In this document: positions 331 through 40,873 of the stretch, in pieces
Layout: each line of letters begins with the position of its first letter
Position numbering within the stretch: position 1 is the first letter of the stretch
Assembly: GCA_048213135.1 (NCBI GenBank)
Contig: PS015010.1
Location: 806,001-870,000 of the forward strand
DNA length: 64,000 nucleotides
DNA from: Reclinomonas americana ATCC 50394
Lineage: Eukaryota
Direction: 5' to 3'
Made by a program: the position numbers and the translations under genes
Notes under the pieces: model-generated
The model's database searches: none
Seen by the model: the letters and a program-made list of their open reading frames with translations, nothing else
What the model was told of the DNA's origin: nothing

Positions 331-1965
331 ATGCAATACGGAGACTTTTATTACCCGATGCCAGTCAACGAACCTGTTCTTAATTATGCACCCGGCAGTG
401 CAGAAAAAAAGCGCCTCAAAGAAGTGCTGAAAGAACTGAAATCGCAGCGTATCGATGTGCCCATGTATATCGGCAATGAAGAAGTGCGTACAGGTAATAC
501 CGTTAGTATCCGTCCGCCGCATGAGCACAAACATATTCTCGGCCAGTTCCATGTCGGCGAAAGTAAACATGTGACCAAAGCCATCAACGCAGCCCTGAAG
601 GCCAAAGACAAATGGGCCGCCATGAGCTGGGAGAACAGGGCCAACATCTTCCTGAAAGCGGCCGACCTCATTGCCGGTAAGTACCGTCCGTATATGAACG
701 GTACCACCATGCTGGGTCAGAGTAAGAACGCTTACCAGGCTGAGATTGACAGTGCCTGCGAAATCATCGACTTCCTCCGCTTCAATGTGCATTTCCTGAG
801 CGATATCTACCGCCAGCAGCCCATCAGCGGGCCGGGCATGTACAACCGCATGGAATACCGCCCGCTGGAAGGTTTTGTATTCGCCCTTACACCGTTCAAC
901 TTTACCGCTATAGGCGGCAACCTGCCCACCAGCGCCGCCATGTGTGGCAATGTGGTGGTATGGAAATGCGCCAACACGCAGGTATTCAGCGCCCAGATGT
1001 TCATGCGCATACTGCGGGAAGCGGGATTGCCCGACGGGGTAATCAACCTTGTATTCGTGGATGGACCTACCATTGGTGAAGTGGTTTTCAATCATCCTGA
1101 TTTTGCAGGTATACACTTTACCGGCAGCACCGGCGTATTCAACCGCATGTGGGAAACCATCGGTAAAAATATGGGTATGTATAAAAGCTATCCCCGCATT
1201 GTTGGGGAGACCGGCGGTAAGGATTTTGTGATCGCTCATAAATCTGCCGACGTAGATGTGGTAGCGACCGCCCTGGCCCGTGGTGCTTTTGAATACCAGG
1301 GACAAAAATGTTCCGCTGCTTCCAGGGCCTATATTCCTTCCAATATAGCGGCAGAAGTGAAGAAGAAACTGGTGGAACAGGTAAAAACGATGAAGATGGG
1401 TACCGTGGAAGACTTCACCAATTTTGTGAATGCCGTGATCGATGAAAAAAGTTTCGATAAACTGGAAGGTTATATCCGCAACGCCCGCAAACGCGACAGC
1501 GGCGCTAAAATATGGGTAGGTGGTAAATGCGATAAAACCGAAGGCTACTTTATTGAGCCCACCATTATTGAAGCCACCGATCCTAAATACGTGACCATGT
1601 GTGAAGAACTCTTTGGGCCGGTACTGACTGTTTACATCTATGATGAAAATAAATATGAAGAAACCCTGAAACTGGTTGACAGCACTTCCGGCTACGCCCT
1701 CACCGGTGCCGTTATCGCCCGCGACCGTGCGGCGGTGGAGCTGGCCACCAACAGGCTGCGCAACAGTGCAGGCAACTTCTACATCAACGATAAGCCTACA
1801 GGCGCTGTAGTAGGTCAGCAGCCATTTGGCGGCGCCCGTGCAAGCGGTACCAACGATAAGGCCGGCTCGCAGCTGAACCTCTACCGCTGGTTAAGCGCAC
1901 GCACCATTAAGGAAACTTTTGTACCACCGGTGGATTACAGTTATCCGTTTATGCAGGAGAAATAA
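331..1965 (+). CDS. pruA: L-glutamate gamma-semialdehyde (P5C) dehydrogenase
   Basis: ALDH fold; ETGGKDF, FEYQGQKCSA (catalytic Cys), GQQPFGGARASGTNDKAG; ATG at 331. Confidence 0.95.
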   Translation: MQYGDFYYPMPVNEPVLNYAPGSAEKKRLKEVLKELKSQRIDVPMYIGNEEVRTGNTVSIRPPHEHKHILGQFHVGESKHVTKAINAALKAKDKWAAMSWENRANIFLKAADLIAGKYRPYMNGTTMLGQSKNAYQAEIDSACEIIDFLRFNVHFLSDIYRQQPISGPGMYNRMEYRPLEGFVFALTPFNFTAIGGNLPTSAAMCGNVVVWKCANTQVFSAQMFMRILREAGLPDGVINLVFVDGPTIGEVVFNHPDFAGIHFTGSTGVFNRMWETIGKNMGMYKSYPRIVGETGGKDFVIAHKSADVDVVATALARGAFEYQGQKCSAASRAYIPSNIAAEVKKKLVEQVKTMKMGTVEDFTNFVNAVIDEKSFDKLEGYIRNARKRDSGAKIWVGGKCDKTEGYFIEPTIIEATDPKYVTMCEELFGPVLTVYIYDENKYEETLKLVDSTSGYALTGAVIARDRAAVELATNRLRNSAGNFYINDKPTGAVVGQQPFGGARASGTNDKAGSQLNLYRWLSARTIKETFVPPVDYSYPFMQEK

Positions 1966-1967
1966 TT

Positions 1968-2049
1968 AAAAAATCAAAGGGAAAAATTAAAAAGGGAGAT
2001 CACCGTAAAAGGAAGTCTCCCTTTTTAATTTTGATTTTTTACTTTTGAC
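1968..2049. repeat. Intergenic inverted-repeat element (17-bp perfect stem 1983-1999/2016-2032), related to 4511-4582 and 44691-44771
   Basis: 2018-2048 matches 44738-44768 at 30/31 positions. Confidence 0.8.
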
Positions 2050-2063
2050 TTAACTATCACCAT

Positions 2064-2573
2064 ATGCAAATCTTACTTACAACCGCACAACTTCATCTTA
2101 CACTTAAAAGACTGGCCCACCAGTTACTGGAAAATGTATCTTCCACCGACGGGCTGGCTTTCATCGGCATACAGCCCCGTGGCGTTAAAGTGAGTGAGCA
2201 ACTGGTAGATATAATCCGGGAATTATCGCCCGGCAGCGTCATTAACTACGGCATACTCGACATTACTTTTTACCGTGATGATGTACGGGAAGAGTTACAT
2301 GTTGCCAGTAAAACGGATATTCCTTTTTCCATTGAAGATAAAAAAGTGATCCTGATCGACGATGTATTGTATACGGGCCGCACCATCCGCGCCGCACTGG
2401 ACGCCCTGCAGGATTTTGGCCGCCCCAGCAAAGTGGAACTTTGTGTGCTGGTAGACAGGCGTTTTAACCGCGAACTGCCCATTCAGCCCGACTATTGCGG
2501 CAAAGCCATCGACACCATCATCTCCCAGAAAGTGAAAGTGGAATGGGAGCGTGAGGAGGTGGTTCTGTATTAA
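2064..2573 (+). CDS. pyrR: Bifunctional pyr operon regulator / uracil phosphoribosyltransferase
   Basis: LDITFYRDD, VILIDDVLYTGRTIRAALDAL, RELPIQPDY; adjacent to pyrB. Confidence 0.95.
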   Translation: MQILLTTAQLHLTLKRLAHQLLENVSSTDGLAFIGIQPRGVKVSEQLVDIIRELSPGSVINYGILDITFYRDDVREELHVASKTDIPFSIEDKKVILIDDVLYTGRTIRAALDALQDFGRPSKVELCVLVDRRFNRELPIQPDYCGKAIDTIISQKVKVEWEREEVVLY

Positions 2574-2603
2574 TTCGTAATTAGTAATTCGTAATTAGTA
2601 ATT
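2571..2603. repeat. 7-nt tandem array TAATTCG/TAATTAG
   Basis: taattcg taattag taattcg taattag taatt. Confidence 0.85.
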
Positions 2604-2609
2604 ATTTTC

Positions 2610-2617
2610 TAGCTTTG
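2610..2617 (+). promoter_or_regulatory. Bacteroidota -7 promoter box (TAgcTTTG) for pyrB
   Basis: Exact TAnnTTTG, 7 nt before the ATG. Confidence 0.6.
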
Positions 2618-2624
2618 CCCCTTA

Positions 2625-3551
2625 ATGCAACTATCTACCAAACATCTATTGGGCATTAAAGACCTCACACCGGAAGACATCTCCCTTATTTTAACCACCG
2701 CCACCCAGTTCAAGGAAGTACTGCAGCGTTCTGTAAAGAAAGTGCCATCGTTGCGGGACATTACCATTGTGAACCTGTTTTACGAGAACAGTACCCGTAC
2801 ACGGATCTCTTTTGAACTGGCGGAGAAAAGGCTCAGCGCGGATACCATTAACTTTTCCGCGGCCGGGTCATCGGCAGCCAAGGGAGAAACACTGCTGGAT
2901 ACGGTCAATAATATCCTGAGCATGAAGGTAGACATGGTGGTGATGCGACACAGCGCCAGCGGGGCGCCGCATTTCCTGGCCAAACATATTCCCGCGGCCA
3001 TCATCAATGCCGGTGACGGTATCAATGAACATCCTACGCAGGCCCTGCTCGATGCCTTGTCCATACAGGAAAAACTGGGCAGCCTGGCCGGTAAGAAGGT
3101 GGTACTCATCGGCGATATCATGCACTCCCGTGTAGCACTCAGCAATATTCACCTGCTCACCAAAATGGGCGCCGAAGTGATGGTGGCCGGCCCGCCAACA
3201 CTGATACCCAAATATATCGGGGAGGCCCTGGGGGTTAAAGTGGAATACAACCTGAAAAAAGCCCTGGAATGGTGTGATGTGGCCAACGTACTGCGCATAC
3301 AACTGGAGCGGCAGAACCAGGTATTGTTTTCTTCCCTGCGTGAATATAACTTAGCCTATGGCGTTAGCCGCCGCCTGCTCGACGGTTTGAATAAAGAAAT
3401 ACTCATTATGCACCCCGGCCCCATTAACCGGGGCGTGGAGATTGACAGTGATGTGGCCGACGGCAACGAATCCATTATACTTCAACAGGTAGAGAACGGT
3501 GTAGCCGTGAGAATGGCCGCCCTTTACCTGCTGTCACCCAAAAGCAACTGA
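2625..3551 (+). CDS. pyrB: Aspartate carbamoyltransferase catalytic subunit
   Basis: FYENSTRTRISFE, HPTQALLD, MHPGPINRGVEI motifs. Confidence 0.97.
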   Translation: MQLSTKHLLGIKDLTPEDISLILTTATQFKEVLQRSVKKVPSLRDITIVNLFYENSTRTRISFELAEKRLSADTINFSAAGSSAAKGETLLDTVNNILSMKVDMVVMRHSASGAPHFLAKHIPAAIINAGDGINEHPTQALLDALSIQEKLGSLAGKKVVLIGDIMHSRVALSNIHLLTKMGAEVMVAGPPTLIPKYIGEALGVKVEYNLKKALEWCDVANVLRIQLERQNQVLFSSLREYNLAYGVSRRLLDGLNKEILIMHPGPINRGVEIDSDVADGNESIILQQVENGVAVRMAALYLLSPKSN

Positions 3552-3574
3552 TCCATCCATTAAAAACACTGCTT

Positions 3575-4057
3575 ATGTCCCGAATCTGTCTCTTTCCCGG
3601 TACGTTTGATCCCGTTACCCTGGGACATACGGATATCATCAACCGGGCGCTGCCCCTTTTTGACCGGCTGGTGATTGGCATTGGCCGTAACAGCAATAAA
3701 ACGCCTATGTTCAGCGAAGAACAAAGACTGGCCTGGTTGCGGGAGATCTATAAAGAAACGCCCAAGGTGGAAGCCATCGCTTATGACGGTCTTACGGTGG
3801 ACTGCTGTAAAAATGTAGGCGCCAATTTTATCCTCAGGGGTATCCGTTATGTAAACGATTTTGAATACGAAAAAGCCATTGCCGACATGAACCGCAGCAT
3901 CGACAAAGGCATTGAAACCATTTTCCTTACCTGCCTGCCCCAGTACACTTCCGTAGCGTCTACGCTGGTGCGTGATGTGCTGCGCTATGGCGGCGATGTA
4001 TCCCAGTTTATACCCGAACTGGTGGTGAATGATATCAAAAAAATGGGCGTCCGCTAA
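3575..4057 (+). CDS. coaD: Pantetheine-phosphate adenylyltransferase
   Basis: FPGTFDPVTLGH, LRGIRYVNDFEYE, ASTLVR. Confidence 0.96.
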   Translation: MSRICLFPGTFDPVTLGHTDIINRALPLFDRLVIGIGRNSNKTPMFSEEQRLAWLREIYKETPKVEAIAYDGLTVDCCKNVGANFILRGIRYVNDFEYEKAIADMNRSIDKGIETIFLTCLPQYTSVASTLVRDVLRYGGDVSQFIPELVVNDIKKMGVR

Positions 4058-4066
4058 TTCCTTGTT

Positions 4067-4495
4067 ATGTCAATCTGGTTTAACCCTTCACTTAGTATCA
4101 ACGACCTCATTCCGCTGGGCCCCCGTACCATGGCCGAACACTTGGGTATGGAATGGCTGGAAGTGGGAGATAACTTCTTAAAAATGCGTATGCCGGTCGA
4201 TGAGCGTACGCACCAGCCTTATGGTTTGCTGCACGGCGGCGCCAGTTGTGCCCTGGCAGAGACCATCGGGAGTGTGGCATCGCATTTTATCATCGATCCC
4301 GGAAAATTTATGTGCGTAGGACTGGAGATCAACGCCAATCATGTACGCAGCGCCCGCAGCGGGTATGTTACCGCCACCTGTACACCTCTTCACATAGGCG
4401 CTTCCACCCATGTGTGGGATATTAAAATTCATGATGAGAGAGAAAAGCTGGTTTGTATAAGCAGGCTTACTGTTGCAGTACTGAAGAAGAAGTAA
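4067..4495 (+). CDS. Hotdog-fold (PaaI/MenI-like) thioesterase
   Basis: QPYGLLHGGASCALAET, GLEINANH. Confidence 0.9.
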   Translation: MSIWFNPSLSINDLIPLGPRTMAEHLGMEWLEVGDNFLKMRMPVDERTHQPYGLLHGGASCALAETIGSVASHFIIDPGKFMCVGLEINANHVRSARSGYVTATCTPLHIGASTHVWDIKIHDEREKLVCISRLTVAVLKKK

Positions 4496-4510
4496 AAAAA
4501 TAAAATTAAT

Positions 4511-4582
4511 AAGTCAAAATTCAAAAGTAAAAAGGGGACCTTAAGGTGGCTTTGTTTTCCATGACCCTTTTTGATTTTTCAC
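4511..4582. repeat. Degenerate copy of the TCAAAA/TTTTGA inverted-repeat element between convergent genes
   Basis: caaaattcaaaagt at 4515-4528 is identical to 44691-44704; right arm ccctttttgatttttca. Confidence 0.6.
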
Positions 4583-4588
4583 CCTTCA

Positions 4589-5218
4589 TCACGGCTCATC
4601 AAAGAACCTGTGCATAATATCCCTGATGGAAGGATAGGTGTCATTCATGGGTTCTTTAATATCCTTCGTTTTCACCCACTTTATCTCGTCGATGTGCTCT
4701 TCCGTTTGCGGTGTCAATTGTTGAGAACCGGTACAGGTCATGTAGAACCAATGCGTTGTTTTGAGGTAATGCTTGCCAAAAGCGTTATAAGTATGGTAGG
4801 TTTCGCCTATCTTTTTTTTCATATGCAGGTTGGTTACACCTGTTTCTTCTTCCACTTCCCGCAGGGCGGCGGCTTCGGCAGATTCCTTTTTTTCGATCTT
4901 ACCCTTGGGCAGGTCCCATTTATCCAGCCGGTGAATGAAAAGGAGCTCTTTCTTGCTGTTCTGTACAATGCCCCCGGCCGCTTCGATCATCGTAAAATGT
5001 TTGAAAAACGCTTTCTTCAGTTTATCCATATCTGCATTCCATAATACCCCGGCATGGAACTCGGGTTTAACGATCTCGTGTAACAGGGATTTGATGGCCG
5101 GGCCCGATATTTCATCAATGAACACCGCGTCGGGATGGTGCAGCACCTTGTTCAGTTCCTGGTCAATATCGGTACAGAGGTATACCGGTTTATCGGCAAA
5201 ATAGATCTTGATGTGCAT
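4589..5218 (-). CDS. NUDIX hydrolase
   Basis: Nudix box GKIEKKESAEAAALREVEEETG; start taken at MHIKIY because the longer ORF overlaps pyrE. Confidence 0.9.
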   Translation of the reverse strand: MHIKIYFADKPVYLCTDIDQELNKVLHHPDAVFIDEISGPAIKSLLHEIVKPEFHAGVLWNADMDKLKKAFFKHFTMIEAAGGIVQNSKKELLFIHRLDKWDLPKGKIEKKESAEAAALREVEEETGVTNLHMKKKIGETYHTYNAFGKHYLKTTHWFYMTCTGSQQLTPQTEEHIDEIKWVKTKDIKEPMNDTYPSIRDIMHRFFDEP

Positions 5219-37945: not shown

Positions 37946-38728
37946 TTATGAATTACGAATGCCCGGTTCTTCAAGAAGCTTTTTGAAATAGGCGGGAGCC
38001 CACTGCAGGCGGCTGCCATACCAGCTGAACATTTCGCCGTCAACCAGCATGATCCTGGTTTGTGGTAATTGTTCCTGAAGTTCATCAATGTGTTTTTGCC
38101 GGAAAGGGTAAGGTTCGGAAGAAAGCAGCAGCAGTTCGCAATCCCGGTTTTGCAGATCGGTCACAGAGATTTCGGGGTAACGGGAGCGGTCACTGAAAAT
38201 ATTATGAAAACCGCATCGCTGCAGCATATCATGGATAAAAGTATCGTGGCCGGCGGTCATATAAGGCTGGCGCCAGATAAGGTAGGCGGTTTTGAGGGCA
38301 ACGGACTGTTGGGGGATATCTTCAAATGCCAGTTGTATGCGGTGCCGCAATTGCTCCGCCTTCGTCTGTGTGCCTGTGAGTTCACCTATATCTGTGATCA
38401 TGCCCAACGCGTGGGGCAGCGTATGTATATCGCTTACCCATACCGGATAATCCCTTGCAAGATCTTCCACCTGTTCCTTTACATTTTCTTCCCTGTTGGC
38501 AATGATGAGATCGGGGCGGAGGGCATCAACCGCTTCTCTTTTCACTTGTTTGGTACCGCCTACGCGGGGCTTGGTCCTGAACCAGGCTTCGGGATGTATA
38601 CAGAACTTGGTGATGCCGGCAGTTGCGCCGTCAAGTTCCAGGTCATACAGTAATTCTGTCTGGGATGGCACCAGCGACACTATCCTGGAAGGAATATAAC
38701 CCAGTTCGGCTGTGGATTGCAGGATCAT
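37946..38728 (-). CDS. Helical-backbone metal receptor (BtuF-like substrate-binding family)
   Basis: RIVSLVPSQTELL, VGGTK, PDLIIANREEN, LSSEPYPF, DGEMFSWYGSR. Confidence 0.88.
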   Translation of the reverse strand: MILQSTAELGYIPSRIVSLVPSQTELLYDLELDGATAGITKFCIHPEAWFRTKPRVGGTKQVKREAVDALRPDLIIANREENVKEQVEDLARDYPVWVSDIHTLPHALGMITDIGELTGTQTKAEQLRHRIQLAFEDIPQQSVALKTAYLIWRQPYMTAGHDTFIHDMLQRCGFHNIFSDRSRYPEISVTDLQNRDCELLLLSSEPYPFRQKHIDELQEQLPQTRIMLVDGEMFSWYGSRLQWAPAYFKKLLEEPGIRNS

Positions 38729-38755
38729 GCGGCAAAATTAGGCAGGGGAGGCTAT

Positions 38756-38792
38756 AAATAAAAACTTCCATGAGCGTATGATCATGGAAGTT
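38756..38792 (-). terminator. Terminator closing the candidate ncRNA
   Basis: aacttccatga/tcatggaagtt 11-bp stem; U run follows on the minus strand. Confidence 0.7.
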
Positions 38793-39170
38793 AATTTTTT
38801 GACACAACCTAAGCACAAGGTGGTCTTTCAGGATTTGATTTTACTTTTCTTAAGGGGTTAAGTGTAAAAATTAAATCAAAAATGATTTTATCCTGGTTTC
38901 AGTGTTACGGGTTTTTCAGCTTTTTACAGCTAAGGAATTGGTTTTTTGGTTTTCAAGCCATCATCGCTTTTTACGGCATAGGCTAGAATAATGGACTTTG
39001 GTTTTTCGTCGGATAAATATGATCTTAAAACGATATTGGCTTTTAAAATAGAAGTTGACTGATATTGGATCGTTGGTGGTTCTTCACAAACATTGGATGT
39101 AATAACTTGGCTTTATCAGGATTCTTGGATAACGATTGATATTTGAAATCTTATCAATCAACTTCTGACA
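38756..39170 (-). ncRNA. Candidate ~400-nt non-coding RNA with ~8 repeated UCC..UGAAAAACC modules
   Basis: Promoter-like CAtcTTTG (39178-39171), own terminator, 14-bp long-range stem with a U.G pair on the minus strand, only very short ATG-initiated ORFs. Confidence 0.55.
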
Positions 39171-39336
39171 CAAAGATGCGACAGGTTCGACTGCCGGGCA
39201 AGAGCGATATTGCTCTTTTTTGGGGCTGTAGTAATTACTGGCAGAGTCGTATATATTCAGAAAAATGACCCGGGTTCTTCCGTAGTACGATATCGTAAAA
39301 ATACGTAGAACAGCCCTGCGGCTTGTACGATGAACT

Positions 39337-39368
39337 AAAAATGCCGCTTCAGGAGAATGCGGCATTTT
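39337..39368 (-). terminator. Terminator of the CBS-like gene
   Basis: aaaatgccgc...gcggcatttt. Confidence 0.75.
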
Positions 39369-39401
39369 ATTGATTATGAGTATTTTGTGTTTTTCTGTCT
39401 T

Positions 39402-40757
39402 TTACTTGGACAGGCTCTGGATAATGTCATATTTTGTTACAATATGGAAAGACCCGCTGTCGTCCCTGCTCAGCACTGCACCATTCTCTTTGGTGATAAA
39501 AGAGCTTAAACGCTCAACCGGTGTATCAAAAGCCACTTCGGGGTAGGCTTTTTCCATCACATTCCCGATGGGTTGCGCTTTAATGTCCGCGTCAGCCAGT
39601 ATTTTATTGAACAGCCCGCTTTCAGATATGGCGCCCACATTGCTGCCATTGTCAATTACAGGAATATTCTCAATGTCGTATTTCTTCATCAGCGCAATCG
39701 CATCCATTACAGTCTGGTCGGGCGTTACAGTGATGAGTTTTTTAGAACCACGTCCACTAATCACATCCCGGAAGGTCTTCACATCCAGGAAACCCCTTTC
39801 CAGCATCCATTCGTCGTTATACACTTTACCTACATAGCGGCTGCCATGGTCATGGAAAATACATACAACCACATCACCTTCTTTCAGGCTGTCTTTCAGT
39901 TGCAGTAAACCCTGCAAACAGCTGCCGGCACTGTATCCGCAGAACATGCCTTCTTCCTTGGCAATACGGCGGGCCATAACGGCGCCATCTTTATCGGTCA
40001 CTTTTTCAAACTTATCGATGTATTGCATATCGTAGTTCTCCGGCACAAAATCTTCGCCGAAGCCTTCACTGATATAGGGATACACTTCCTTCTGATCCAA
40101 TTCGCCGGTCTCGAAATATTTTTTCAGGAGGGAGCCATAACTGTCAATGGCCCACACTTTAATGTTTGGATTTTTTTCTTTCAGGTATTTGCCGGTGCCA
40201 ATGATGGTACCGCCGGTGCCGGTAGCAACCACCAGGTGGGTCACCTTGCCTTCGGTCTGCTCCCATATTTCGGGGCCGGTTTGTTCGTAATGCGCCAGCC
40301 TGTTGGCCAGGTTATCATATTGATTCACATACCAGCTGTTGGGCACTTCGGTGGCCAGGCGTTTGGAAACAGAGTAGTAACTGCGGGGATCTTCGGGTTC
40401 CACATTGGTAGGGCAAACGATCACTTCAGCGCCTACAGCTTTCAGGATGTCGGCCTTTTCTTTTGACTGTTTATCAGTAGTGGTGAAAATGCATTTGTAT
40501 CCTTTTACACAGGCGGCCAGGGCCAGTCCCATACCGGTATTACCGCTGGTGCCTTCAATGATGGTGCCGCCGGGTTTTATCTTGCCTTCCTGTTCGGCCA
40601 CTTCCAGCATTTTAAGGGCCATACGGTCTTTAATGGAGTTGCCGGGATTGAAGTATTCTACCTTGGCCAGTACAGTGCAGGGCAGGTTTTTGGTGATCTT
40701 GTTCAGTTGAATGAGCGGGGTATTACCGATCGTTTCTAAGATATTATTGAGCCACAT
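39402..40757 (-). CDS. Cystathionine beta-synthase-like PLP enzyme with C-terminal CBS domains (alternative start 40766)
   Basis: IGNTPL, NPGNSIKDR, EGTSGNTG, GTGGT, DHGSRY; CBS pair at the C-terminus. Confidence 0.9.
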   Translation of the reverse strand: MWLNNILETIGNTPLIQLNKITKNLPCTVLAKVEYFNPGNSIKDRMALKMLEVAEQEGKIKPGGTIIEGTSGNTGMGLALAACVKGYKCIFTTTDKQSKEKADILKAVGAEVIVCPTNVEPEDPRSYYSVSKRLATEVPNSWYVNQYDNLANRLAHYEQTGPEIWEQTEGKVTHLVVATGTGGTIIGTGKYLKEKNPNIKVWAIDSYGSLLKKYFETGELDQKEVYPYISEGFGEDFVPENYDMQYIDKFEKVTDKDGAVMARRIAKEEGMFCGYSAGSCLQGLLQLKDSLKEGDVVVCIFHDHGSRYVGKVYNDEWMLERGFLDVKTFRDVISGRGSKKLITVTPDQTVMDAIALMKKYDIENIPVIDNGSNVGAISESGLFNKILADADIKAQPIGNVMEKAYPEVAFDTPVERLSSFITKENGAVLSRDDSGSFHIVTKYDIIQSLSK

Positions 40758-40873
40758 AGCATGCATTTTGGCGCAAAGGTACTGATTTGCACTGAGCCCT
40801 CCTCGGGCAACTGAAAGTTATGATGGCACGATTACTGCCTGACAGCTGTTGCTGATCATACTAAATCTGCATT

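Follow-up and report, generated by a model that had tools for sequence, protein, structure and literature searches.

Base-pairing sponge RNAs of Proteobacteria include SroC, which is directed against the small RNA (sRNA) GcvB, 3'ETS-leuZ against RyhB and RybB, and the chbBC spacer against ChiX. The known Proteobacterial sponges offer one or very few sites and require Hfq, and most of them arise as by-products from mRNAs or precursors of tRNAs. CsrB, CsrC, RsmX, RsmY and RsmZ as well as CrcZ and CrcY are titrating RNAs of ~100-400 nt that consist of repeats of a short single-stranded motif and are present at high level, sometimes from several gene copies; CsrA sponges expose GGA in hairpin loops and Hfq/Crc sponges A-rich stretches. 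Outside bacteria, ciRS-7/CDR1as serves as a multi-site microRNA decoy and plant IPS1 as a target mimic for miR399 whose unpaired centre prevents cleavage. In Caulobacter, CrfA pairs with the SisA sibling sRNAs (available part of PMC12559287). The available part of PMC11697453 describes the Bacteroides sRNAs FopS and GibS, built of a single-stranded 5' seed and a terminator hairpin and present as many paralogues in an Hfq-less lineage, and RbpB of B. thetaiotaomicron, which binds single-stranded RNA and multicopy sRNAs; a dedicated FopS sponge was not found in this part. Since Bacteroidota lack the classical chaperones and sponge RNAs, little is understood of their RNA regulation.

The large noncoding RNA reported here and its ~62-nt partner sRNA are two unlisted RNA families, neither of which was found in a literature search or in Rfam. 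The large RNA is, in our judgement, probably an abundant multi-site base-pairing decoy (sponge) for the sibling sRNA family. Its predicted job corresponds to that of SroC, 3'ETS-leuZ, the chbBC spacer and CrfA, namely to occupy the seed of a trans-acting sRNA by base pairing, thus keeping this sRNA away from other targets. Unlike the Proteobacterial sponges, the large RNA has a dedicated gene, frequently in tandem, carries 6-11 predicted two-part sites and occurs in bacteria with Hfq-less relatives. With the CsrB/Rsm/Crc RNAs it shares the repeat-built architecture of a titrating RNA. It differs from CsrB, RsmY and RsmZ by the lack of GGA enrichment and of an Rfam match and by the lack of CsrA (found in 0/4 relatives), from CrcZ and CrcY by the corresponding result for Hfq (0/4), and from both groups by a motif that has an exact RNA complement. 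The presence of many sites on one abundant noncoding RNA and the unpaired duplex centre are reminiscent of ciRS-7/CDR1as and IPS1, a resemblance of function only, between different domains of life and, with Argonaute lacking here, different machineries. Like CrfA, the large RNA has several sibling sRNAs of one family as its predicted partner (available part of PMC12559287). This partner is built like FopS and GibS (available part of PMC11697453) but has no sequence or Rfam relationship to them and a different taxonomic range, the sRNA model R2 matching 6/151 sampled genomes of the class, four of these from the Chitinophagaceae sample.

Transcription unit and conservation

The gene lies on the minus strand of the window, i.e. 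the whole 64-kb stretch of DNA that was analysed. A preliminary description had placed here, in a spacer insulated from both neighbours, a stand-alone minus-strand transcription unit and had interpreted it as a titrating RNA for a protein. All sequence features listed in it were recovered at their positions; the spacer is indeed insulated by the terminator of one flank and the -7 box of the other, and the unit possesses its own promoter and intrinsic terminator. The features of the locus are the following:

39402..40766, minus: upstream flanking gene, PLP enzyme with CBS domain, cystathionine beta-synthase-like
39368-39338, minus: the upstream gene's own terminator, perfect 10-bp inverted repeat (39368-39359 with 39347-39338)
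39231..39238, minus: upstream promoter element GTAATTAC at ~-70, family consensus GTAAATAC, conserved block in 29 aligned upstream regions
39199..39222, minus: A-run and GAGCAATATCGCTCTTG, (near-)invariant columns in alignment A1 and the 29 upstream regions
39171..39178, minus: -7 box CATCTTTG of the TAnnTTTG type, 20 nt past the -33 TTG
39167-38756, minus: noncoding RNA gene, ~412 nt, conserved as a unit, covered by RNA-library contigs, Rfam-negative
39152..39166, minus: P1 5' arm AGAAGUUGAUUGAUA, 15 predicted pairs, 3 with compensatory changes
39134..39141, minus: UAUCAAUC, can pair locally with the P1 5' arm instead, in a mutually exclusive hairpin
39050..39064, minus: P1 3' arm UAUCAGUCAACUUCU, with a U-rich run behind it
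38956..38984, minus: insert hairpin AGCC-UAUGCCGUAAAAAGCGAUGAU-GGCU, situated inside a module
38931-38918, minus: mini-hairpin AGCUGUAAAAAGCU, splitting module 6
38888..38904, minus: conserved block CACUGAAACCAGGAUAA, containing the UGAAACCA of the preliminary description, not a predicted seed site
38756..38792, minus: intrinsic terminator, 11-bp stem (38792-38763), 8-nt loop, U run to 38756
38740-38733, minus: the downstream gene's -7 box TAATTTTG, 4 nt ahead of its ATG
37946..38728, minus: downstream flanking gene, TroA-like/Peripla_BP_2 protein

The 5' end of the noncoding RNA was deduced from promoter geometry, whereas the terminator served to deduce the 3' end. The last three letters of GCTCTTG are the -33 TTG (39201-39199). 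The promoter-like CAtcTTTG at 39178-39171 is assigned to the TAnnTTTG type, which we take to be the -7 consensus of Bacteroidota, and is conserved in relatives: AT.TTTGT is invariant in 16/16 aligned units, and the consensus over 29 upstream regions reads TAt.TTTGT. The GTAATTAC element further upstream is a possible regulator site. The 11-bp terminator with its U run, anticipated at 38792-38756, is also kept in relatives, with a conserved position and covarying stems in alignment A1. Read on the plus strand, 39199..39222 has the appearance of a weak terminator-like hairpin.

The strand had been left in doubt owing to nine GGA motifs on the plus strand. These are present, but plus is the non-RNA strand: the fold z-score is -4.58 for minus versus -1.33 for plus, a U.G pair of P1 is kept in 27/28 copies, and the conserved promoter and terminator belong to minus. 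An RNA on the plus strand was rejected, as it would fold more weakly, lack the conserved promoter and contain C.A where minus has U.G. A coding function was rejected as well. The 93-aa ORF at 39365-39084 begins within the upstream gene's terminator, runs across both the promoter and a stretch that is not conserved and is without a match in Pfam, and the length of the unit changes in module-sized steps. With respect to Rfam membership, an issue raised in the preliminary description, no known family was matched at gathering score in the 64-kb window, and 38650-39450 gave only noise at E up to 10. A 6S-like RNA was discarded on the basis of the absence of 6S or 6S-Flavo matches in the window and of its wrong shape, a 15-bp stem closing a ~85-nt loop followed by an unstructured tail as compared with the rod-like 6S; the 6S models had zero matches anywhere in the related genomes G001 and G002, a weak test.

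Comparison of the relatives' spacers, as envisaged earlier, showed the spacer to be conserved as a ~520-nt unit. R1, a model of the large RNA's 5' domain, matched 22/80 loci fetched via the upstream gene, with 30 copies that are all on that gene's strand and with 2-3 copies in loci L004, L006, L007, L010, L012 and L016. Among the 151 sampled Chitinophagaceae genomes, 49 are R1-positive with 1-7 matches each, often as tandem units.

Metatranscriptome contigs span 38808-39357 at a depth of 1193-4673 in two runs of one study, in which the upstream gene's contig has a depth of 16-21 and the downstream gene's one of 2-4; these values suggest that the large RNA is highly abundant, with the reservation that contig depth is a poor measure of expression, that contigs carry neither strand nor ends and that short contigs over repeated modules add up the depth of several copies and organisms. 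The contigs contain 1 mismatch within the RNA part 38942-39167 and 9 within the 190 nt upstream. Since one RNA contig reaches 39357, 190 nt beyond the presumed start, the start at ~39167 retains the status of a deduced position. In run X6 no listed contig lies over 39064-39548, uncovered parts being uninformative, and runs X10 and X11 hold just one 260-nt contig (38892-39150); the latter two agree in contig size, depth and longest record and may therefore be duplicate entries of a single data set. The adapter remnants at 38808, 39011 and 39015 point in both directions and thus yield no strand information.

Repeated modules and RNA structure

The noncoding RNA carries repeated UCC...GAAAAACC modules, and their recurrence, a central claim of the preliminary description, is beyond chance both against shuffles and, independently, in 28 homologues. 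In the window RNA, a motif of the type GAA[AG]A(0-2)[AG]CC was seen 6 times versus 0.39 expected (0/1000 dinucleotide shuffles reach 6) and ATCC 6 times versus 2.5 expected (28/1000 reach 6), and plain TCC is unenriched (9 versus 7.5; 290/1000 reach 9), these patterns having been picked post hoc with the data already seen. Support independent of the post hoc patterns is provided by the 28 homologues of other genomes, in which ATCCAA, TCCAAT, AATCCA and AAAACC are the top over-represented 6-mers, ATCCAA occurring 122 times versus 7.7 expected and 0 times on the opposite strand. An antisense partner was also sought for the block CACUGAAACCAGGAU; matches lay on both strands in 5 genomes and followed no recognisable pattern.

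The RNA is poor in G (55 of 412 nt) and mostly unstructured from P1 to the terminator. P1 itself, announced as a 14-bp stem, comprises 15 bp between 39166-39152 and 39064-39050 with one U.G. The competing UAUCAAUC pairing is preserved via G.U in the GAUG/CAUU variants of L017, L018, L025 and L033. Two small hairpins sharing GUAAAAAGC are located, as expected, at 38984-38956 and 38931-38918. Among 29 aligned copies of the insert hairpin the outer stem covaries, with CG to UA changes in 6 and 5 copies; 94.6% of the cells are paired, and the covariation score is 0.272 versus 0.129, reached by 0/500 shuffles.

In the alternative interpretation as a protein sponge, an RNA-binding protein, e.g. a Bacteroidota RRM-1 protein, would be titrated by the UCC...AAACC modules in their single-stranded form, and the sRNA would be a second ligand of this protein or a competitor. 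A G-poor RNA, largely unstructured between P1 and the terminator, would be suitable for this purpose, the high contig depth and the tandem copies suit stoichiometric titration, RRM_1 proteins were found in 4/4 relatives, and the invariant P1 arms together with the conserved inner insert hairpin look like protein-recognition features; the decoy model does not explain the near-invariance of both P1 arms. RbpB sets a precedent in Bacteroidota (available part of PMC11697453). On the other hand, CsrA (PF02599) and Hfq (PF17209) were each found in 0/4 related genomes, in searches that gave matches in control genomes, and GGA is unenriched on the RNA strand (2 versus 1.76 expected; 612/1000 shuffles reach 2). 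Moreover, according to the available part of PMC11697453, the in-vitro RbpB motif is GUAGGAUA, which resembles the module's complement and not the module, and a C/U-rich motif is unbound; further RbpB motifs in the supplementary figures of PMC11697453 may bear on the matter. In its pure form, protein titration also fails to predict that another gene family should contain the exact complement over 21 nt. The search for CsrA and Hfq in 4 relatives identified no protein partner, and we regard a protein sponge as unlikely, although a protein such as RRM-1 may also bind the modules.

A predicted partner sRNA family

The reading as an sRNA decoy builds on a second RNA family. A search of G001 with the complement of a 10-mer half-module produced 38 matches versus 9 for a control, and the intergenic matches have an exact 21-mer in common, of which 3-8 mismatch-free copies exist in each of 4 genomes (control 0). 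The 21-mer constitutes the 5' end of a predicted ~62-nt sRNA with 1-13 dispersed copies per related genome; its sequence, GGUUUUUCAUAGGAUAUUGGA, is the exact complement of the canonical module, and the 11 nt outside the query fit the module's second half. As the sRNA was found via the complement of a module half, complementarity to that 10-mer is given by construction, and independent support derives only from the remaining 11 nt, from an anatomy resembling that of genes and from the co-occurrence described below.

On the strand opposite to the module, the sRNA loci consist of a -7 box, 4 nt, GG, the 21-nt seed, a hairpin and, last, a U run. Of 53 distinct copies, 51 agree fully in the seed, 25/28 strict -7 boxes sit exactly 4 nt ahead of GG, and the hairpin covaries with compensatory changes at 4 pairs. 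A conceivable alternative dispenses with pairing and considers the dispersed hairpin and 21-mer elements as 3'-UTR tails of the module strand, read by a protein in common with the large RNA. At least 10 of 20 examined loci have an ORF on the module strand whose end lies 5-110 nt ahead of the element, A and U runs flank the hairpin such that termination is possible both ways, and for 14/53 hairpins the module strand gives the better fold, the energy being lower on the sRNA strand in the other 39/53. Against this stand the -7 box on the sRNA strand exactly 4 nt before GG (39/53 copies with TAnnTT at the fixed place; a recognisable box is missing there in 14/53), the T content past the hairpin (8.5 of 10 versus 3.8 on the other strand), the conservation, which begins exactly at GG, and the consideration that a transcript of the module strand would place the 21-mer after the terminator. 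The 3'-UTR explanation thus appears very improbable to us, and the elements are treated as sRNA genes in the following.

Rfam gave no match at the positions of 12 sRNA loci at E up to 0.1, with sub-threshold noise around the loci. The 64-kb window contains no sRNA copy. The 5 closest relatives have 5-11 R2 matches each; the source organism of the window presumably also has the sRNA, which is probably expressed. For mRNA targets, a 13-mer over the AUG-like centre with up to one mismatch yielded 34 matches in G001 (control 24) and 31 in G002 (control 18), the perfect matches being almost all the sRNA genes themselves, and a scan of the 64-kb window with the sRNA seed gave only background sites outside the large RNA. 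No mRNA target is proposed.

Predicted pairing and co-occurrence

Seven non-overlapping seed sites with energies of -15.8 to -23.8 kcal/mol were predicted in the large RNA, and they coincide with the modules of the preliminary description:

39108..39130, minus: seed site 1 in module 1, -17.9 kcal/mol
39077..39098, minus: seed site 2 in module 2, -23.8 kcal/mol, the strongest in the 64-kb window on both strands
39037..39070, minus: seed site 3 in module 3, -17.1 kcal/mol, overlapping the P1 3' arm
38999..39016, minus: seed site 4 in module 4, -16.5 kcal/mol
38974..38996, minus: seed site 5 in the left part of module 5, -15.8 kcal/mol
38909..38942, minus: seed site 6 in module 6, -16.4 kcal/mol, split by the mini-hairpin AGCUGUAAAAAGCU
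38821..38838, minus: seed site 7 in module 8, -16.7 kcal/mol

An iterative count at a threshold of <= -14 kcal/mol resulted in 6 sites compared with 0.59 +/- 0.72 in dinucleotide shuffles (0/300 reach 6), while the opposite strand has 0 sites and shuffled seeds give 0.25 (0/300). In the 28 members from other genomes the mean is 6.64 sites versus 0.70 in shuffled sequences and 0.07 on the opposite strand, and 26/28 have at least 3 predicted sites. The predicted duplex is interrupted in a characteristic manner: across 192 sites, nt 1-7 and 12-20 of the seed are paired in 63-100% (most in 85-100%) and nt 9-11 in 41-53%, full pairing being found in just 3/192. When hairpin-insert modules were co-folded with the seed, a three-way junction was formed in 3/4 tested cases with ddG values of -15 to -21 kcal/mol.

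R2 matches 110/151 sampled Chitinophagaceae genomes and is present in 49/49 R1-positive ones (hypergeometric p 3.5e-9, relatedness ignored). The lack of CsrA and Hfq in 4 relatives, the exact complement in the sRNA and this complete co-occurrence make an sRNA sponge likelier than a protein sponge. From the preliminary description, the titrating architecture is hence retained and the protein partner is not, the modules being complementary to the invariant 21-nt end of the sRNA; the large RNA probably soaks up sRNA rather than protein.

Complementarity and co-occurrence apply equally to a reversed logic, in which the large RNA is the effector, a scaffold or regulator acting via P1 or the 3' domain, and the sibling sRNAs mask it or trigger its decay. 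The strongly conserved P1 and 3' domains, superfluous for a simple sponge, fit such a role. However, the sRNA is found in 110/151 genomes as compared with just 49 for the large RNA, so that the sRNA must also function where the large RNA is missing, and the 21-nt seed is invariant also in genomes devoid of the latter, which implies other conserved targets. We therefore consider the reversed logic quite unlikely. For the sponge model, the distribution fits a wider sRNA family with other targets, to which the sponge would have been added in a sub-clade. A divergent sponge may exist in R1-negative genomes; in 5 of them, a search with a strict module pattern for a sponge devoid of P1 found almost only sRNA genes, and R1 with laxer filters was gained by 0/40 R2-positive, R1-negative genomes.

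Proposed mechanism

What was observed is the RNA family with its strand and conservation, its coverage by RNA libraries, the family of sRNA genes, and the complementarity and co-occurrence of the two; from this we infer that the two RNAs would pair in cells and that the large RNA would be the titrator and not the target. In this scenario, the sRNA would expose a single-stranded 5' seed, GGUUUUUCAUAGGAUAUUGGA, followed by the terminator hairpin and U run. The left half of a module, UCCAAUAUCC-like, is predicted to pair with seed nt 12-21 and the right half, GAAAAACC-like, with nt 1-7, the central CAUA of the seed staying mostly unpaired. At this centre, the clade to which the window belongs has an inserted hairpin that covaries, such that sRNA and module would form a three-way junction. 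The central gap presumably guards the duplex from double-strand RNase. One large RNA might hold ~6 sRNA molecules, a capacity that would be greater in relatives with tandem copies of the gene, and the conserved promoter region of the large RNA would set the level of free sRNA for other targets.

We see about even chances that, with the large RNA, a natural equivalent of the multi-site microRNA sponges is found in bacteria for the first time, namely a dedicated, very abundant and tandemly amplifiable RNA with 6-11 interrupted sites, in one clade with hairpin three-way junctions, in a phylum without Hfq, ProQ-type and CsrA chaperones. If this is true, Chitinophagaceae would at once gain two RNA families and a level of sRNA control that are new. 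A literature search found no bacterial multi-site sponge, although one may already be in print. The array of interrupted sites would then mean that bacteria evolved the multi-site target-mimic design of animal and plant microRNA decoys, and it could serve as a natural template for synthetic sRNA sponges. Both unlisted families are widespread in Chitinophagaceae, which are common in soil, freshwater and activated sludge, and the locus supplies a concrete, directly testable pairing rule between them. Close relatives vary in the number of sites and of gene copies, which suggests a fast evolutionary tuning of sponge capacity. In G049, G097, G146 and G001 the genes of the sRNA and of the large RNA are located ~70-670 nt apart from each other.

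Locus and strand of the large RNA

The spacer between two minus-strand genes contains the large RNA, a ~412-nt noncoding RNA (39167-38756, minus strand) with a closing stem (P1) and repeated UCC-containing units (modules). The sequence features listed for it in the preliminary description were all recovered in place.

Features of the spacer and its flanks (window positions)
39402-40766, minus: upstream neighbour, PLP enzyme with CBS domain
38729-39401: spacer, 673 nt, separating the two minus-strand genes
39368-39338, minus: terminator of the upstream gene, hairpin and U run
39238-39231, minus: GTAAATAC-like element near -70
39201-39199, minus: TTG part of GCTCTTG, among the most conserved upstream columns
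39178-39171, minus: CATCTTTG promoter box of the large RNA
39166-39152 paired with 39064-39050, minus: P1, 15-bp long-range stem with one U.G
Module region, minus: two small hairpins, both containing GUAAAAAGC
38792-38756, minus: large-RNA terminator, 11-bp stem and U run
38740-38733, minus: TAATTTTG box of the TroA-like gene, 4 nt ahead of its ATG
37946-38728, minus: downstream neighbour, TroA-like Peripla_BP_2 protein

Several lines of evidence agree in predicting transcription of the large RNA from the minus strand, as proposed earlier with the strand flagged for confirmation. The minus-strand fold has a z score of -4.58, equalled by 0 of 100 shuffles; that of the plus strand (z -1.33) does not stand out from its shuffles in this way. 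Both P1 arms are nearly invariant among the copies, compensatory changes occur in 3 of the 15 pairs, and the U.G is retained in 27 of 28 copies. Apart from P1 the large RNA is G-poor (55 G in 412 nt). The most conserved columns in an alignment of the upstream regions are GCTCTTG and, 20 nt on, A-T-n-T-T-T-G-T, whose spacing and form we take to be those of the Bacteroidota -33/-7 promoter type. Rfam yielded no match, either for the whole window at gathering score or for the spacer at E up to 10. A coding role of the spacer was rejected: the sole sizeable ORF (93 aa, 39365-39084) begins inside the upstream terminator, runs through a part that is not conserved, and is unmatched in Pfam.

The P1 5' arm has an alternative local pairing with 39141-39134 (minus). 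Directly 3' of the P1 3' arm lies a U-rich run (39050-39037), UAUUUU here, UUUUUU in many members and found at the same place in most homologues; P1 and this run could form an early terminator, giving a ~120-nt short isoform beside the full-length RNA. Just upstream of the -33 box a conserved GAGCAATATCGCTC element gives, on the plus strand (39196-39215), a 6-bp hairpin and then TTTTTT, which could halt antisense transcription or serve as a regulator's dyad site; covariation in its stem is not clean. The TAATTTTG box 4 nt before the ATG of the TroA-like gene (38726-38740) implies that its mRNA may be leaderless, and the 260-aa protein shows no signal peptide by eye, despite its membership of a periplasmic-binding family.

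Conservation and modular build

Of 80 loci carrying the upstream PLP/CBS protein, those closest to the window come from MAGs of Chitinophagaceae and Ferruginibacter, and these keep the spacer as one ~520-nt unit (equivalent to 39260-38750). The entire unit, including its own promoter and terminator, is tandemly present two or three times in several relatives, so that stretches free of ORFs above ~160 aa extend for up to 2.8 kb in L004 and at least 4 kb in L012. The covariance model R1 of the large-RNA 5' domain picks out 30 copies at 22 of these 80 loci, each in the same orientation as the upstream gene, and matches 49 of 151 sampled Chitinophagaceae genomes (1-7 matches per genome, at dispersed loci). 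Among the 30 best R1 loci, 21 have the PLP/CBS gene upstream and 14 the TroA-like gene downstream; judged by these shared neighbours, the copy in the window is thus the ancestral, syntenic one. In 11 of 30 loci the large RNA or the TroA-like gene is followed downstream by a conserved ORF of ~330-400 aa that neither Pfam nor NCBIfam matches (e.g. L087:1699-2886; homologues in L089, L102, L105 and L108).

Enrichment of the modules holds for some patterns, but not for plain TCC, which is at background in the window RNA. There, the GAAAAACC-type motif occurs six times versus 0.39 expected (0/1000 shuffles) and ATCC six times versus 2.5 (28/1000), both patterns having been picked after the data were seen. 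In an unbiased k-mer count on 28 members, all taken from other genomes, ATCCAA, TCCAAT, AATCCA, AAATCC and AAAACC were the top 6-mers, with ATCCAA observed 122 times versus 7.7 expected and the reverse complements only 0-3 times. Distant members retain the promoter and P1, followed by 200-500 nt of RUCCAAnRUCC...GAAAAACC repeats. Hairpin inserts are confined to the clade of the window; their outer stem covaries over 29 copies (94.6% of cells paired; score 0.272 versus 0.129, reached by 0/500 shuffles).

In distant members the U-run terminator is replaced by a long conserved 3' hairpin, ACCGUCUGC...CCCUCCUGCUAA-loop-UUAGCAGGAGG...GCAGCGGU, seen ~250-450 nt past the R1 match in L088, L091, L092, L095, L097, L098, L102, L103, L105, L107, L108, L109 and L112. 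It pairs AGGAGG with an anti-Shine-Dalgarno-like CCUCC, and in L091 a GTG frame 8 nt past AGGAGG reads into the TroA-like gene.

A predicted partner sRNA family

A search of the related genome G001 with the complement of the half-module TCCAATATCC gave 38 matches versus 9 for a control. The intergenic matches have in common a longer exact 21-mer, TCCAATATCCTATGAAAAACC, whose 11 nt outside the query correspond to the second half of the module; it occurs 3-8 times without mismatch in each of four genomes (control 0). Read on the opposite strand, these loci have the anatomy of sRNA genes and are predicted to encode an sRNA: a TAnnTTT(G/A) box and, after exactly 4 nt, GGUUUUUCAUAGGAUAUUGGA, then a short linker of U and A, a hairpin with compensatory changes in four pairs, and 6-9 U. 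Over 53 distinct copies (L134-L184), the seed, i.e. the 5' 21 nt, is identical in 51, and a TAnnTT box stands at the fixed place in 39, in strict form in 25; of 28 strict -7 boxes found, 25 lie at the 4-nt distance from the sRNA start. A rival remains in which the module strand is the transcribed one at the dispersed 21-mer elements, and pairing would not occur. On the sRNA strand the T content past the hairpin is 8.5/10, versus 3.8 on the other, and 39 of the 53 hairpins are stabler. The sRNA family has no Rfam match. Its covariance model, R2, matches 110 of the 151 family genomes (1-13 per genome) and only 6 of 151 in a class-wide sample, four of them also in the family sample.

Some sRNA genes form short tandem arrays of three copies ~330 nt apart or two copies 154-199 nt apart (G150:C1:413614-414297; L151:743-962; L135, two copies, spacing 154 nt). 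Several sRNA genes adjoin small ATACCC...GGGTAT hairpins with T runs behind them, placed upstream of the sRNA promoters (L138, L142, L144, L149 and L153) in tail-to-tail or head-to-tail order. These are probably terminators of convergent genes, which would place the sRNA genes in very tight intergenic slots.

Predicted pairing and proposed function

The seed is predicted to pair with the window RNA at seven non-overlapping sites (-15.8 to -23.8 kcal/mol), with which seven of the eight modules first described coincide. Iterative masking left six sites at or below -14 kcal/mol, versus 0.59 +/- 0.72 in 300 dinucleotide shuffles (0/300 reach six), 0 on the opposite strand and 0.25 for shuffled seeds (0/300 reach six). 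The strongest seed site on both strands of the entire 64-kb window is 39098-39077. The 28 members from other genomes average 6.64 sites each, their shuffles 0.70 and their opposite strands 0.07, and 26 of them have at least three. Across 192 sites both seed ends are paired in most, nucleotides 9-11 in just 41-53%, and only three sites are fully paired; the insert hairpin, where present, is located exactly in this central gap. Co-folding of four hairpin modules with the seed (ddG -15 to -21 kcal/mol) predicted that three keep the hairpin with both half-sites paired, as a three-way junction.

All 49 genomes with R1 matches are among the 110 with R2 matches (hypergeometric p 3.5e-9, relatedness ignored). 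An sRNA gene adjoins the large-RNA gene in G049, G097, G146 and G001, and each of the window's five nearest relatives has 5-11 R2 matches; the 64-kb window itself contains no sRNA copy. Laxer filters gained no R1 match in 40 R2-positive, R1-negative genomes, and in five such genomes a strict module pattern found almost only sRNA genes. The sRNA is thus the wider family and probably older than the large RNA.

The most economical interpretation is that the large RNA acts on the sibling sRNAs as a multi-site decoy. The decoy would be abundant, amplifiable via tandem duplication and run from its own conserved promoter region, each molecule offering ~six interrupted sites; the central interruption might, like that of plant target mimics, shield the duplex from a double-strand RNase. 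A rival with the roles reversed remains: the large RNA would itself be the effector, and the sRNAs its antagonists. Target searches in the 64-kb window and in two related genomes (G001 and G002) found no mRNA target of the sRNA.

Another remaining rival is that a protein reads the modules, as in the protein sponge originally proposed. The repeated-module build is indeed of the titrating type, but neither Hfq nor CsrA was found in four related genomes (control genomes were positive), and a protein partner was not found. Each of the four encodes 1-3 RRM-1 proteins. RbpB of B. thetaiotaomicron is reported to bind three GUAGGAUA repeats, not a C/U-rich motif, and to associate with multicopy sRNAs in which a terminator follows a single-stranded 5' seed (PMC11697453).

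The predicted decoy would work like base-pairing sRNA sponges. In build the large RNA is similar to CsrB and CrcZ, but its motif is a different one, it matches none of their Rfam models, and their partner proteins were not found in relatives. The partner sRNA shares its layout, though not its sequence, with FopS/GibS of Bacteroides. Our literature search turned up neither RNA family, nor any multi-site sponge for sRNAs in bacteria; the nearest parallel found is Caulobacter CrfA, reported to be a sponge for sibling sRNAs (PMC12559287). We rate the large RNA and the sRNA as two new RNA families.

Presence in RNA libraries

Four RNA-library runs were compared with the window, all as contigs, which show neither strand nor ends. 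Two biofilm metatranscriptomes, both from a single study, have contig depths of 1193-4673 across 38808-39357, with 16-21 for the upstream-gene contig and 2-4 for downstream-gene contigs; contig depth is a poor expression measure, and short contigs on repeated modules merge several copies. The organism in these two runs is a relative, its upstream-gene contig having 64 differences in 1362 positions; the large-RNA part (38942-39167) shows one difference only, and nine fall in the 190 nt that precede the inferred start. Since one contig continues to 39357, we infer the 5' end at ~39167 solely from promoter geometry and the conservation boundary. The two other runs, possibly one data set filed twice, gave a single 260-nt contig (38892-39150) with zero differences. 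Low-depth contigs at 38906-38994 skip 50 nt or step back 34-45 nt in the module region, which looks like module-number variation between co-occurring strains.
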